A program made the translations under genes and the position numbers. From assembly GCF_003334315.1 (NCBI RefSeq), contig NZ_QOWR01000029.1: a stretch of 52,432 nucleotides of DNA; one strand, written 5' to 3'. The notes below the pieces were generated by a model. The model did no database searches. It had not been told where the DNA came from and worked only from the letters and a program-made list of their open reading frames with translations. Positions 24,089-26,960 of this stretch are shown here, piece after piece; position 1 is the stretch's first letter, and each line of letters starts with the position of its first letter. This DNA comes from Escherichia coli. Lineage in GTDB: Bacteria; Pseudomonadota; Gammaproteobacteria; Enterobacterales; Enterobacteriaceae.

Positions 24089-24991
24089 ATGGCCAATCTC
24101 TACGACTTGAAAAAGTTCGACTTAAATCTTCTTGTCATATTTGAGTGTATTTACCAGCATTTAAGCATTAGCAAAGCTGCTGAATCACTATATATCACCC
24201 CATCAGCCGTGAGCCAGTCGTTACAACGCTTACGTGCGCAATTTAATGACCCTTTATTCATTCGCTCAGGAAAAGGTATCGCGCCGACGACAACAGGGTT
24301 AAATCTGCATCACCATCTTGAGAAAAATCTCAGAGGCCTTGAACAAACAATTAATATAGTCAATAAGTCCGAACTAAAGAAAAACTTTATTATCTACGGC
24401 CCTCAGCTCATTTCTTGCTCTAATAATAGTATGCTGATCCGCTGCCTACGGCAAGATTCCTCTGTCGAGATTGAGTGCCATGATATCCTCATGTCAGCAG
24501 AGAATGCTGAAGAACTGTTGGTTCACCGCAAAGCCGATCTGGTGATCACCCAAATGCCAGTGATCAGCCGTTCCGTCATTTGCATGCCATTGCATACGAT
24601 TCGCAATACTCTAATTTGTAGTAATAGGCATCCACGAATTACTGACAATAGCACTTATGAACAAATTATGGCAGAAGAGTTCACCCAATTAATATCTAAA
24701 TCAGCAGGGGTTGATGATATTCAAATGGAAATAGACGAGAGATTTATGAATCGCAAAATCTCATTTCGTGGTTCCTCTTTGCTGACAATCATTAATAGCA
24801 TTGCAGTTACAGATTTACTGGGAATAGTCCCCTATGAACTTTATAATTCCTACCGTGACTTTCTTAATTTAAAAGAGATAAAACTAGAACATCCGTTACC
24901 TTCAATAAAGCTTTATATTTCCTATAATAAATCTTCTTTAAATAATTTGGTGTTCTCCCGATTTATTGACCGTCTAAATGAGAGTTTTTGA
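24089..24991 (+). CDS. ybdO: LysR-family transcriptional regulator (AT-rich gene, paralog of ybeF)
   Basis: 300-aa ORF with N-terminal LysR HTH (ISKAAESLYITPSAVSQSLQRLRAQF...); recognised as YbdO. Confidence 0.88.
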   Translation: MANLYDLKKFDLNLLVIFECIYQHLSISKAAESLYITPSAVSQSLQRLRAQFNDPLFIRSGKGIAPTTTGLNLHHHLEKNLRGLEQTINIVNKSELKKNFIIYGPQLISCSNNSMLIRCLRQDSSVEIECHDILMSAENAEELLVHRKADLVITQMPVISRSVICMPLHTIRNTLICSNRHPRITDNSTYEQIMAEEFTQLISKSAGVDDIQMEIDERFMNRKISFRGSSLLTIINSIAVTDLLGIVPYELYNSYRDFLNLKEIKLEHPLPSIKLYISYNKSSLNNLVFSRFIDRLNESF

Positions 24992-25137
24992 TATATAACT
25001 ACAGACAGTTACTATAACTTTCATCTATTTATTCACAGCGCGAATGAAAAATAAAACACTCTGCTTTACAGTGTTTACTTTATAATTAACAGACTTATCT
25101 CACTGATCACCCTGTAACGTTCAGAGAGCGTCTTCAG

Positions 25138-26358
25138 ATGTCTATTTATAAAATTCCTCTTCCGCTCAATATTCTGGAAGCTGCACGAGAGCGTATTACC
25201 TGGACACTCAACACCCTACCCCGCGTTTGTGTCTCATTTTCTGGCGGCAAAGACTCTGGTTTAATGCTGCATCTGACAGCCGAACTTGCCCGACAAATGG
25301 GCAAAAAAATCTGCGTTTTGTTTATCGACTGGGAGGCGCAATTCTCTTGCACCATTAACTATGTTCAGTCCCTGCGCGAGTTGTACACCGATGTCATCGA
25401 AGAGTTTTACTGGGTTGCGCTCCCGCTTACGACGCAAAATTCCCTTTCACAATACCAACCCGAATGGCAGTGCTGGGAACCTGATGTCGAATGGGTACGT
25501 CAACCTCCCCAAGATGCGATAACCGACCCTGACTTTTTCTCCTTTTACCAGCCAGGCATGACCTTCGAACAATTTGTACGTGAGTTTGCCGAATGGTTTT
25601 CACAAAAACGTCCGGCGGCGATGATGATCGGCATCCGTGCGGATGAGTCCTACAACCGTTTTGTCGCCATCGCCAGTTTAAATAAACAACGTTTTGCCGA
25701 CGATAAACCCTGGACTACGGCCGCACCAGGCGGTCATAGCTGGTACATTTACCCCATTTACGACTGGAAAGTGGCTGATATCTGGACCTGGTATGCAAAT
25801 CATCAAAGTCTCTGCAACCCACTGTATAACCTAATGTATCAGGCAGGCGTTCCTCTGCGTCATATGCGAATTTGCGAACCTTTTGGCCCGGAGCAACGAC
25901 AAGGATTATGGCTCTATCACGTTATCGAACCGGATCGCTGGGCTGCTATGTGCGCACGAGTCAGCGGGGTAAAAAGTGGCGGCATTTACGCCGGACATGA
26001 CAATCATTTCTATGGGCATCGGAAAATCCTCAAGCCAGAACATTTAGACTGGCAAGAATATGCATTATTGCTGCTCAATAGCATGCCGGAAAAAACAGCT
26101 GAGCATTACCGCAATAAAATCGCCATTTATTTGCACTGGTATCAGAAAAAAGGCATCGAGGTTCCACAAACCCAGCAAGGGGACATTGGCGCGAAAGATA
26201 TCCCCTCCTGGCGGCGGATATGCAAAGTTTTACTCAATAACGATTACTGGTGTCGGGCATTATCATTTAGCCCCACAAAATCGAAGAACTATCAGCGTTA
26301 TAACGAACGGATAAAAGGAAAACGTCAGGAATGGGGAATACTATGCAACAACGATTAA
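25138..26358 (+). CDS. ybdN: PAPS-reductase-like PP-loop ATP pyrophosphatase (DndC/SspD/IbrA-like), function unknown
   Basis: 406-aa ORF with the PP-loop motif SFSGGKDS near the N-terminus; recognised as K-12 YbdN. Confidence 0.85.
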   Translation: MSIYKIPLPLNILEAARERITWTLNTLPRVCVSFSGGKDSGLMLHLTAELARQMGKKICVLFIDWEAQFSCTINYVQSLRELYTDVIEEFYWVALPLTTQNSLSQYQPEWQCWEPDVEWVRQPPQDAITDPDFFSFYQPGMTFEQFVREFAEWFSQKRPAAMMIGIRADESYNRFVAIASLNKQRFADDKPWTTAAPGGHSWYIYPIYDWKVADIWTWYANHQSLCNPLYNLMYQAGVPLRHMRICEPFGPEQRQGLWLYHVIEPDRWAAMCARVSGVKSGGIYAGHDNHFYGHRKILKPEHLDWQEYALLLLNSMPEKTAEHYRNKIAIYLHWYQKKGIEVPQTQQGDIGAKDIPSWRRICKVLLNNDYWCRALSFSPTKSKNYQRYNERIKGKRQEWGILCNND

Positions 26359-26960
26359 CGCAGGATTTAACGCAATTTCTCGCCAGCTTGCCGGAAGATG
26401 ATCGCATCAAAGCGATTAATGAAATCCGCATGGCGATCCATCAGGTTAGCCCCTTTCGTGAAGAGCCAGTGGATTGCGTTCTGTGGGTTAAAAACAGCCA
26501 ACTTATGCCTAATGATTACAACCCAAACAACGTGGCACCACCCGAAAAAAAACTGCTGCAAAAATCCATTGAAATAGATGGTTTTACCCAACCCATTGTG
26601 GTCACACATACGGATAAAAATGCCATGGAAATCGTGGATGGTTTTCACCGCCATGAAATTGGTAAAGGCTCATCATCATTAAAATTACGCTTAAAAGGTT
26701 ATTTGCCGGTGACCTGTCTGGAAGGTACGCGTAATCAACGCATCGCCGCGACTATTCGTCATAATCGCGCTCGTGGACGCCATCAAATCACCGCCATGTC
26801 GGAAATCGTCCGTGAACTTAGCCAGTTGGGATGGGATGATAATAAAATTGGCAAAGAGCTGGGAATGGACAGCGACGAAGTGCTGCGCCTGAAGCAAATT
26901 AACGGCCTGCAAGAGTTGTTTGCCGACCGTCAATATTCCCGCGCCTGGACGGTTAAATAG
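26331..26960 (+). CDS. ybdM: ParB/sulfiredoxin-like domain protein (IbrB-like), function unknown
   Basis: 209-aa ORF with ParB-type motif IVDGFHRH; overlaps the ybdN 3' end by 28 nt; recognised as K-12 YbdM. Confidence 0.85.
   Translation: MGNTMQQRLTQDLTQFLASLPEDDRIKAINEIRMAIHQVSPFREEPVDCVLWVKNSQLMPNDYNPNNVAPPEKKLLQKSIEIDGFTQPIVVTHTDKNAMEIVDGFHRHEIGKGSSSLKLRLKGYLPVTCLEGTRNQRIAATIRHNRARGRHQITAMSEIVRELSQLGWDDNKIGKELGMDSDEVLRLKQINGLQELFADRQYSRAWTVK

Follow-up and report, generated by a model that had tools for sequence, protein, structure and literature searches.

The conserved ybdN-ybdM pair of Escherichia coli, an IbrA/IbrB-type PP-loop and ParB-fold module with a probable role in DNA modification or in the activation of foreign genes

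What does the ybdNM pair of E. coli do? Few operons of E. coli K-12 that are conserved and under strong selection still lack a biochemical function; ybdN and ybdM make up one of them. No such function was found in the papers on ybdN/ybdM, IbrA/IbrB and DUF3440 accessible to the search, in agreement with the original prediction, and YbdM has been termed 'completely uncharacterized' (PMC8764527). The pair was studied here in a stretch of 52,432 nucleotides of the E. coli contig NZ_QOWR01000029.1 (the window). The locus is citR(ybdO)-ybdN-ybdM of E. coli without doubt, being 99.8% identical to that of E. coli K-12 MG1655, in which the same three genes are annotated; the neighbours are ahpCF, dsbG, citR, ybdL and hcxA. 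As argued below, the most likely role of the pair is either DNA modification or the activation of foreign genes; it is neither a sulfur-metabolism gene nor a recognisable phage-defence system.

All features of the locus were recorded on the forward strand. The ybdO gene, now citR, occupies positions 24089 to 24991 (300 aa), ybdN positions 25138 to 26358 (406 aa), and ybdM positions 26331 to 26960 (209 aa), the last two genes overlapping by 28 nt (26331 to 26358). These open reading frames, the overlap, and the motifs SFSGGKDS and IVDGFHRH that had been read from the sequence were all found. The same reading described the three genes as an AT-rich islet. The G+C content is 0.384 in citR, 0.322 in the dsbG-citR intergenic region (23881 to 24088) and 0.336 in the citR-ybdN intergenic region (24992 to 25137), which is the presumed ybdNM promoter/operator region, as compared with a window mean of 0.519 (standard deviation 0.052 for 900-nt windows). 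The values for ybdN (0.475) and ybdM (0.465) lie within one standard deviation of that mean. Thus, in the G+C calculation that had been proposed, the islet shrinks to citR and its two flanking regions, and ybdN and ybdM are of near-native composition. Deep sequence divergence is confined to the same part of the locus. Two deep citR alleles exist within E. coli (dS about 2, dN/dS 0.03); the dsbG-citR region shares 73–84% identity with the second allele, and the citR-ybdN intergenic regions of the two alleles are about 75% identical.

The adjoining LysR-type regulator noted earlier is present, and is already characterised as CitR, the repressor of ybdNM (PMC9068703). Its identity was confirmed by a score of 467.5 bits against the equivalog model NF047710 of NCBIfam (cut-off 400). 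Deletion of citR raised expression of ybdN by log2 5.5 and that of ybdM by log2 2.5, and a ChIP-exo peak of CitR lies upstream of citR (PMC9068703). The citR promoter is located inside the H-NS-bound dsbG-citR region; transcription starts 107 nt upstream of the ATG, at about window position 23982, and H-NS upstream and downstream regulatory elements have been described at the promoter region (PMC4720273). The suggestion that ybdO is AT-rich and silenced by H-NS was therefore correct. A promoter and terminator scan of positions 23700 to 27300 gave as many matches as shuffled sequence, and an inverted-repeat search of both intergenic regions gave hairpins, none attributable to CitR or YbdM binding.

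Of 5426 complete E. coli genomes, 5423 carry the pair itself, and it is found at the same site, between ahpCF-dsbG and ybdL, in Citrobacter, Salmonella, Enterobacter, Klebsiella, Kluyvera and others. It evolves under strong purifying selection, with dN/dS of 0.03–0.10. Hence, ybdNM is a fixed, vertically inherited chromosomal paralogue in Enterobacteriaceae that has its own LysR repressor; the pair is old and does not form a recent islet. A uniformly conserved core pair of native G+C content, the finding that the original prediction had named as speaking against its own reading, is largely what was observed. Its proposal of a functional pair is supported. In about 150 of 160 loci on chromosomes, plasmids and viral contigs, homologues of the two genes lie next to each other and run in the same direction, mostly with an overlap. 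Apparent fusions of the two (P0362 and AFDB entries of 505–551 aa) were not counted as evidence; as the genes overlap out of frame, these are likely to be frameshift artefacts.

YbdN includes an N-terminal domain of the PAPS-reductase (adenine nucleotide alpha-hydrolase) fold, at residues about 30–234, followed by a helical DUF3440 domain at residues about 237–384, with Pfam E values of 1.2e-13 for PAPS_reduct and 5e-23 for DUF3440. The structures of YbdN and YbdM were predicted as single chains, and structure comparison of YbdN gave matches to APS/PAPS reductases and CysD; its closest folds are CysD, FAD synthetase and DndC. The earlier assignment to the PP-loop proteins of this fold is thus borne out. 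The motif SFSGGKDS corresponds to residues 33–40 (25234 to 25257), with the PP-loop SGGKDS at 25240 to 25257. Comparison of 90 homologues sharing only 31–85% identity leaves the PP-loop and about 25 further residues without any change, and dN/dS for ybdN is 0.036; judged from these sequence data, YbdN looks like an active enzyme. PDB sequence and profile searches revealed no close solved homologue, the nearest being CysD, FAD synthase and PAPS reductase.

RefSeq names YbdN 'phosphoadenosine phosphosulfate reductase', and IbrA-type proteins are routinely annotated 'PAPS reductase' and tallied in virome studies as sulfur auxiliary genes, the DUF3440 clade being counted as cysH. CysH enzymes possess a conserved C-terminal catalytic cysteine in an ECGLH-type motif. 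No such cysteine was found in the YbdN family. No cysteine is invariant across the 90 aligned homologues; phage homologues have another residue in place of C247 (RICEPFG), and C372, kept in at least 90% of the sequences, lies inside DUF3440. The CysH models TIGR02057, NF002537 and TIGR00434 gave 34.8, 34 and 24.8 bits against cut-offs of 254.2, 154 and 165, respectively, and matched only residues about 14–107. Given that the catalytic cysteine is missing and that a ParB-like partner is obligate, the 'cysH' reading is argued to be wrong. YbdN further differs from CysH, CysD and FAD synthetase in falling under every curated cut-off and in having the DUF3440 domain and the ParB-like partner.

YbdM is made up of two N-terminal helices, a ParB/sulfiredoxin nucleotide-binding fold and a helix-turn-helix (HTH) at residues about 153–196, and the chain of 209 residues ends right after the HTH. 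Both the ParB-CTPase fold and a box II-type nucleotide-binding motif are present. Within the fold, TIRHNRARG occupies residues 141–149, and IVDGFHRH comprises residues 101–108 (26631 to 26654), with DGFHR at 26637 to 26651. The predicted fold, together with a weak Pfam match to ParB_N (E 3e-4), agrees with the ParB/sulfiredoxin assignment made before. Structure comparison showed the C-terminus to be similar to sigma-70 region 4, LuxR, the KorB DNA-binding domain and VirB. A canonical ParB partition protein was considered and rejected. There is no parA at the locus, YbdM has no C-terminal dimerisation domain of the ParB type, and family scores are far under the cut-offs (20.8 bits against 315 for the best NCBIfam match, the Noc model TIGR04285; 18.4 against 58.45 for a phage IbrB-like fusion on the ParB model TIGR00180). 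No close solved homologue of YbdM was revealed by PDB sequence and profile searches, the nearest being Spo0J and Noc.

The kinship with IbrA/IbrB that had been suggested is real. RefSeq labels YbdM an 'IbrB-like domain-containing protein', AFDB neighbours of YbdN are named IbrA (reaching TM 0.97 at 57% identity), and the arrangement is that of the family, a PAPS_reduct plus DUF3440 protein beside an IbrB-like ParB protein on the same strand. Both phrog_2302 and phrog_2159 are strong matches for the pair. The two-gene architecture and the domains are shared with IbrA/IbrB of E. coli ECOR-9 and of STEC islands, the difference being that ibrAB is mobile whereas ybdNM is fixed on the chromosome. 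Mobile IbrA copies are 55–59% identical to YbdN at the protein level and show a similar gene overlap; 39% of E. coli genomes carry a mobile ibrAB copy, on islands and plasmids and in up to four places per genome. The family also occurs in pathogenicity islands, in virulence plasmids (ColV, and the pLVPK type of hypervirulent Klebsiella) and in phages. Near-universal pairing across plasmids, islands and phages, including lytic ones, is a new observation, as is the set of genes added in the phage versions, which encode SNF2 helicases, an ectoine-synthase cupin and a 141-aa protein. The cupin and the 141-aa protein are in some cases fused to the ParB-like protein.

Lytic phages carry the pair between the lysin gene and early genes, and in Arthrobacter phage Laroye it is next to methyltransferase and terminase genes. 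Flavobacterium phage FCL-2 and Moineauvirus are among the lytic carriers. In about 30 viral loci, the gene directly beside the pair encodes an SNF2 or DEAD helicase, as in the SNF2-IbrA-IbrB module of a Streptococcus thermophilus phage, and replication or recombination genes also occur nearby. Some phage contigs have a module of four genes, for the ectoine-synthase cupin, IbrB, the 141-aa protein and IbrA. IbrB-like proteins can carry the ectoine-synthase domain as an N-terminal fusion, in which it scores 135.7 bits (NCBIfam cut-off 128) with a Pfam E value of 4e-37. The 141-aa protein, which has no match in Pfam, PHROGs, NCBIfam or the PDB, is fused to the C-terminus of some IbrB-like proteins, and a 142-aa protein is fused to IbrA in P0243. 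Recurrent accessory families are absent beside the pair in 75 of the 78 bacterial loci that have a full-length YbdN homologue.

The favoured explanation, to which a probability of roughly 0.4 is given, is that ybdNM is a ParB-guided, ATP-pyrophosphatase-driven DNA-modifying module that is kept silent in E. coli. The pair would be the minimal two-gene core of the IbrA/IbrB family, of phage and mobile-element origin. YbdM would bind DNA by means of its ParB/sulfiredoxin fold and HTH and recruit or activate YbdN, which would convert ATP to AMP and PPi while adenylating an oxygen on the nucleic acid. If the target is a base carbonyl or carboxyl, the reaction would be like that of TilS or QueC-type enzymes; if it is a phosphate-type oxyanion, like that of CysD, FAD synthetase and DndC. 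The adenylated group would then be substituted to give a covalent DNA modification. In phages, the core is extended by the ectoine-synthase-type cupin, the 141-aa and 142-aa proteins and the SNF2/DEAD helicases, and its product would benefit the infecting phage. Enterobacteriaceae have retained the pair alone at its fixed chromosomal site, where H-NS and CitR hold it off, and expression of a pair of this family would alter that of silenced foreign genes, as is reported of IbrAB and the prophage eib genes. The folds, the invariant PP-loop, the pairing, the fusions, the control by CitR and H-NS and the purifying selection are observed; we infer that YbdN and YbdM form a physical complex, that they act on DNA and by the chemistry given, and that modification leads to gene activation.

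Several observations argue for DNA modification: the invariant residues of YbdN and the selection on it, the DNA-binding architecture and constant adjacency of YbdM, the fusions tying further enzymes to the DNA-binding partner, the helicase neighbours and the occurrence in lytic phages. Repression of the locus by CitR and H-NS, and enhancement of Eib expression by IbrAB as related in papers citing Sandt 2002, are in keeping with it. There are also precedents of ParB-fold partners for DNA-modifying enzymes, namely those of the ParB-dependent thymine dioxygenases (5mYOX; PMC13229309), ParBc proteins with CmoX or methyltransferases, DpdB with DpdA, and DndB. Like YbdM, the small ParB-fold protein of the phage systems is encoded beside an enzyme, there a post-replicative DNA-modifying one, which in one tested case required it; ParB-domain/enzyme fusions are common. 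The 5mYOX, DpdB and CmoX systems differ in that YbdN is a PP-loop ATP pyrophosphatase with DUF3440 and no known DNA product; YbdM has an HTH and no dimerisation domain, and the reverse is true of the 5mYOX-associated ParBs. Against this explanation, no report of a modified base or backbone, whether in E. coli or in a phage carrying the pair, was found in the searchable literature, and the bare enterobacterial pair has no obvious donor-supplying enzyme. Cupin domains, including an EctC-like one, can be ligand sensors in transcription factors, SNF2 proteins can act on RNA polymerase too, and the mobile copies in E. coli and Klebsiella lie among virulence and iron-uptake genes, not DNA-metabolism genes. 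The sole genetic phenotype of the family, gene activation, is also explained by pure regulation.

Pure regulation is the main rival. According to it, ybdNM is a transcriptional co-activator or anti-silencer that leaves DNA unmodified, which is possible though rather unlikely. NTP-gated YbdM/IbrB would load through its HTH in the manner of VirB or KorB and displace or remodel H-NS on AT-rich foreign genes or activate phage late promoters, and YbdN/IbrA would be an obligate accessory enzyme that loads, charges or senses a small molecule for it. The enhanced expression of prophage eib genes (Sandt 2002, as cited by others) is the only known phenotype of the family, and homologues are named 'co-activator of prophage gene expression IbrA' in UniProt and NCBI. 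VirB, one of the proteins that the YbdM C-terminus resembles, is a CTP-dependent, ParB-like anti-silencer of H-NS. Moreover, the mobile copies adjoin a PerC-family regulator and silenced virulence or siderophore clusters, the actinophage pair is located just upstream of terminase genes, and a ParB-fold/Sigma70 fusion binds ATP. However, co-activation leaves unexplained both the invariant catalytic PP-loop with many other YbdN residues and the recruitment by phages of an apparently intact ectoine-synthase enzyme and helicases. YbdM also lacks the dimerisation domain of the ParB, KorB and VirB clamps, and no binding site or parS-like repeat was identified for it; where VirB and KorB have the GERR arginine patch, YbdM has DGFHR, and its obligate enzyme partner sets it further apart from them.

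More doubtful is an extended form of the DNA-modification proposal, by which IbrA/IbrB would be an unrecognised class in which a ParB clamp delivers a PP-loop adenylating enzyme, and a phage ectoine-synthase-type cyclodehydratase and two further proteins elaborate the product into a new hypermodified base or backbone. A silent copy would then reside in nearly every E. coli and most of the Enterobacteriaceae examined, and its derepression would mark the chromosome and change H-NS silencing. A ParB-guided DNA-modifying enzyme would bring new chemistry to phage DNA hypermodification and explain how IbrAB switches on silenced prophage genes; a co-activator would amount to VirB-like anti-silencing in a new form, coupled to an enzyme. 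With CitR and H-NS identified as the repressors, K-12 allows a direct test of either.

The substrate could also be RNA, with YbdN adenylating a tRNA or mRNA base like TilS, TtuA or ThiI and YbdM serving as specificity or regulatory subunit, so that AT-rich or rare-codon foreign and phage genes would be better translated. This is improbable given that YbdM combines a DNA-type HTH with a ParB fold, that the genes nearby encode DNA helicases or serve replication or recombination, and that no RNA-binding domain such as THUMP, PUA or a TilS C-terminal domain was detected.

The original prediction had raised a defence-like role. Under that reading, ybdNM would protect or mark its host in the manner of Dnd/Ssp phosphorothioation or BREX type 4, with YbdM being DndB-like and YbdN DndC-, SspD- or BrxP-like. 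The pairing is analogous, a DGxHR ParB-fold protein being combined with a PAPS-reductase-fold PP-loop ATP pyrophosphatase that acts or, in the case of YbdN, would act on DNA. PADLOC (v2) gave no significant defence-system match for any of the three proteins, and none at all for CitR. YbdN matched DndC (E 2e-5, residues 155–254 only) and BrxP (E 1.2e-4, residues 29–102 only) marginally, and YbdM matched only a ParB-containing MTase_II model (E 1e-3); on the DndC model TIGR03183, YbdN scored 22.2 bits against a cut-off of 290.4. Dnd and Ssp systems are defined by a clustered ATPase (DndD/SspC), a DNA-recognition protein (DndE/SspB) and a cysteine desulfurase (PMC12707154). None of these was found at the locus, nor was a restriction or effector gene or a BREX gene (PglZ, BrxC, BrxL); neighbours at other loci were compared against recurrent accessory clusters only. 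DndC has conserved cysteines for an Fe-S cluster, and a cysteine dyad unique to DndC has been described; among the 90 YbdN homologues, no cysteine is invariant that could hold an Fe-S cluster or a persulfide. Instead of a patchy distribution in defence islands, the pair shows core status and synteny throughout a bacterial family, and lytic phages carry close homologues. As the PADLOC matches are only marginal and partial, and defence neighbours are missing, the filing as a defence system was dropped, and such a role is considered highly improbable.

Sulfur assimilation by a CysH-type PAPS/APS reductase or CysD-type sulfurylase, as annotated, has in its favour the fold and the rise of the cys regulon by about 4–7 fold in the citR deletion, in which ybdNM is derepressed (PMC9068703), but is scarcely credible for a protein that scores 25–35 bits against cut-offs of 154–254 over its first ~100 residues, has the full SGGKDS PP-loop typical of ATP pyrophosphatases and no CysN-like GTPase partner, and is joined to a ParB/HTH partner and an extra 170-residue domain that are out of place in sulfate assimilation.

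An alternative in-frame ATG of ybdM lies at position 26343 and is preceded by GGGGA. A start at this codon would shorten the overlap with ybdN to 16 nt, which is the length found in paralogous pairs.

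The three ORFs of the locus lie on the plus strand between dsbG and ybdL at 24089-24991 (citR, previously ybdO; 300 aa), 25138-26358 (ybdN; 406 aa) and 26331-26960 (ybdM; 209 aa). E. coli K-12 MG1655 matches the stretch at 99.8% identity, and its annotation names these genes citR (ybdO), ybdN and ybdM. The predicted motifs SFSGGKDS (YbdN residues 33-40) and IVDGFHRH (YbdM residues 101-108) were found, as was the predicted 28-nt overlap between ybdN and ybdM. The overlap shortens to 16 nt if a second ATG at 26343, for which GGGGA is better spaced, is used; an overlap of 16 nt is the one found in paralogous pairs. 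At the other end, ybdM (+) and ybdL (-) are convergent with abutting stop codons and zero spacer (26958-26963). No terminator-like site was found between them in this interval, and hence their transcripts must overlap.

The GC content is 0.384 in citR, 0.322 in its upstream flank and 0.336 in its downstream flank, as compared with a window mean of 0.519. The AT-richness included in the original prediction is thus real but confined to citR and the intergenic region on either side of it, as ybdN (0.475) and ybdM (0.465) differ little from native values. A perfect 11-nt inverted repeat, GGATGGTTGAA / TTCAACCATCC, with a 14-nt spacer (23893-23928) lies 13 nt past the dsbG stop codon and falls within the H-NS-bound region upstream of citR; no T-run follows the repeat on the plus strand.

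The locus is present in 5423 of 5426 complete E. coli genomes, and its identity to the window is bimodal (at least 95% in 3634 genomes and 80–90% in 1773). Deep divergence, at 73–79% nucleotide identity, is seen only at about 23800-25300, which takes in the promoter region, all of citR, the spacer between citR and ybdN, and ~150 nt at the start of ybdN. In the remainder of ybdN and in ybdM, identity between the E. coli alleles is 95–97%, as it is in the flanking genes. Accordingly, citR and both its intergenic flanks exist as two deep alleles, the other one being carried by 1773 of the 5423 genomes, and the two CitR proteins share 88% identity. Between these alleles, citR has a dS of about 2 and a dN/dS of 0.03, while dS in the flanking genes is 0.02–0.3. 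For ybdN, dS is 0.29–0.70 and dN/dS 0.036–0.040, and for ybdM, compared within E. coli and against Salmonella and Citrobacter, the values are 0.09–1.76 and 0.03–0.12, respectively. The diversity of ybdO has been framed as faster mutation under H-NS (PMC4720273); the two-allele pattern resembles a balanced polymorphism of long standing, or the import of one allele, more than that alone.

The order ahpF-ahpC-dsbG-(citR)-ybdN-ybdM-ybdL is shared by Escherichia, Citrobacter, Salmonella, Enterobacter, Klebsiella, Kluyvera, Lelliottia, Yokenella, Trabulsiella and others. Some lineages lack citR, which evolves much faster than ybdNM; identities between E. coli and Salmonella are 54% for CitR, 82% for YbdN and 77% for YbdM. 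From this pattern of identity, dS and synteny, ybdNM is an old, vertically inherited and selected part of the enterobacterial chromosome, and behaviour typical of silenced foreign DNA is confined to the regulator region. The proposal of a single horizontally acquired islet is therefore not supported. A uniformly conserved core pair of native GC content had been named beforehand as evidence against the original prediction, and this is largely what was found for ybdNM. Elsewhere in the window, ybdR (18381-19619, minus strand; 412 aa, zinc-dependent alcohol dehydrogenase), which is also present in K-12, is missing between uspG and rnk in E. coli STEC299.

Both the genes and the way they are regulated have been described before. 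YbdO has been renamed CitR, and ChIP-exo places it upstream of citR-ybdNM; deletion of citR raises ybdN by log2 5.5 and ybdM by log2 2.5, so that CitR is a repressor of ybdNM (PMC9068703). In the same deletion, the whole cys regulon (cysDNC, cysJI, cysAWU) rises by log2 2.0–2.8 and flagellar genes by up to log2 5.3 (PMC9068703); activity of the derepressed YbdNM may be one cause. As predicted, ybdO is silenced by H-NS, which binds and represses it via upstream and downstream elements, and it ranks among the H-NS-bound E. coli genes with the greatest sequence diversification (PMC4720273). Carriage of plasmid pUUH239.2 by MG1655 increases the YbdM protein 29-fold, and the authors term YbdM 'completely uncharacterized' (PMC8764527). 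In line with the original prediction, no paper in the literature searched assigns a biochemical activity to a member of the YbdN/YbdM (IbrA/IbrB) family. What is new here is the survey of pairing and the phage extensions.

In YbdN, PAPS_reduct (E 1e-13) precedes DUF3440 (E 5e-23); the AlphaFold2 model, which draws on 90 homologues, has high confidence (pLDDT 91.4). Across these homologues (31–85% identity), the PP-loop residues S35, G37, K38, D39 and S40 are invariant together with ~25 further residues, many of them Arg or Trp, and no cysteine is invariant. Membership of CysH, CysD or DndC was rejected, as scores fell far under every curated cut-off. For these reasons, YbdN is predicted to be an ATP pyrophosphatase that forms a family by itself, and it is neither a PAPS reductase nor a DndC. 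In YbdM (model pLDDT 88.7), the expected ParB fold is followed by a C-terminal HTH resembling sigma-70 region 4, LuxR, the KorB DNA-binding domain and VirB; a C-terminal dimerisation domain is absent. The motifs NDYNPN, DGxTQP, DGxHR and TIRHNRARGxH are near-invariant.

ORFs were called in 160 fetched loci and subjected to iterated profile searches. The predicted pairing holds: a YbdM-like gene adjoins a YbdN-like gene on the same strand in ~150 of them, usually with an overlap. The pair is bare in 75 of 78 bacterial loci and in 10 of the 77 viral loci having a full-length YbdN homologue. Partners in the viral loci are a 141-aa protein (about 31), an SNF2-type helicase (phrog_62) adjoining the pair (about 21), an ectoine-synthase cupin (16), a DEAD-type helicase (phrog_16; about 7) and a 142-aa protein (phrog_26647; 6).

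Three of these partners also occur as fusions. In viral contigs L126 (9268-10203), L153 (9155-10234) and L156 (9311-10252), the EctC cupin is fused to the N-terminus of the IbrB-like ParB protein (NF009806, 135.7 bits against a cut-off of 128; Pfam Ectoine_synth, E 4e-37, plus ParB_N), and it is a separate gene in L127, L135, L137, L141, L143 and L146. The phage domain appears to retain the Glu, Tyr and His that serve as iron ligands in published EctC. One literature search combined ectoine synthase with ParB, phages or DNA modification, and none of the papers that it listed mentions ectoine synthase. The 141-aa domain, with motifs WE(D/E/C) and NRxAWxGHAA, is joined to the C-terminal end of the ParB protein in L112 (6539-7684) and L121 (6826-7974) and stands alone in 23 loci (e.g. 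L156 and L099); Pfam, PHROGs, NCBIfam and PDB yielded no match for it. The 142-aa protein lies directly upstream of IbrA in L092, L093, L095, L100, L101 and L145 and is fused to the IbrA N-terminus in the metagenomic protein P0243 (535 aa). The three fusions tie these proteins to the YbdN/YbdM-type system. Two positions occur among the annotated phages examined. In S. thermophilus phage 94, S. equinus phage PY7 and Lactobacillus phage AQ113, the pair is flanked by the lysin gene on one side and by the early or Cro-like region on the other; in Arthrobacter phage Laroye, it adjoins a methyltransferase, with the terminase genes close downstream. Flavobacterium phage FCL-2, which shows no sign of lysogeny, also carries it.

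The wider family includes 224 matching phage records. Among 1.84 billion cluster representatives searched, 217 clusters match at E ≤1e-30 and 1009 at E ≤1e-10. AFDB neighbours of YbdN come from Streptomyces, Desulfovibrio, Deinococcus, Akkermansia, candidate phyla and a Heimdallarchaeon. The predicted kinship with IbrA/IbrB was confirmed. Paralogous pairs at variable sites are 54–64% identical to YbdN. One to four such pairs, most of them chromosomal, accompany ybdNM in 2131 of 5426 complete E. coli genomes (39%), and 855 plasmid records match. The pair lies between fecIA and iroBCDN on Klebsiella virulence plasmids, adjoins iutA-iuc on one ColV-type plasmid, a TonB-dependent receptor in strain 83972, and an AAA protein, a PerC-family regulator and iuc in a STEC strain.

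The invariant PP-loop, the obligate partner with a ParB fold and HTH, the enzymes fused to this DNA binder and the adjoining helicases point to DNA as the target in preference to a metabolite. These four observations, together with precedents for the ParB fold, place first a nucleic-acid modification in which YbdM would guide an adenylation-driven YbdN (probability about 0.4). In this growing set of precedents, phage thymine dioxygenases are ParB-dependent (PMC13229309), and DpdB, DndB and the ParBc proteins that occur with CmoX are likewise ParB-fold partners of DNA-modifying enzymes. The ParB fold binds ATP, CTP or GTP depending on context; the survey showing this makes no mention of YbdM, IbrB or PAPS reductases. 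The main rival, somewhat less probable, is a VirB/KorB-like co-activator or anti-silencer with YbdN as an accessory. It directly accounts for the sole known phenotype, the boosting by IbrA and IbrB of prophage-encoded Eib protein expression (Sandt et al. 2002, as described in citing papers), and fits the location of mobile copies next to PerC and to virulence clusters that are silenced, but explains the conservation of the YbdN enzyme less well. tRNA modification is improbable, Dnd/BREX-like defence marginally more so, and true sulfur assimilation least probable; all three are weak or contradicted by the protein, distribution and mobile-copy features tested. The defence-like module that the original prediction listed as one option is thus not supported. 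With ParB-guided modification as the preferred reading, the pair is classed as a new variant among ParB-partnered nucleic-acid enzymes and not as a CysH, Dnd, Ssp or BREX member, because its chemistry fits no defined family.

Iron-uptake genes stand beside the IbrAB-like pair in all four mobile contexts inspected (loci L001, L002, L168 and L169), and ybdNM of K-12 itself is ~5 kb from the ent cluster (entH-entA, 31993-34000 in the window). This neighbourhood could be due to hitch-hiking on a few successful islands or to a regulatory link.
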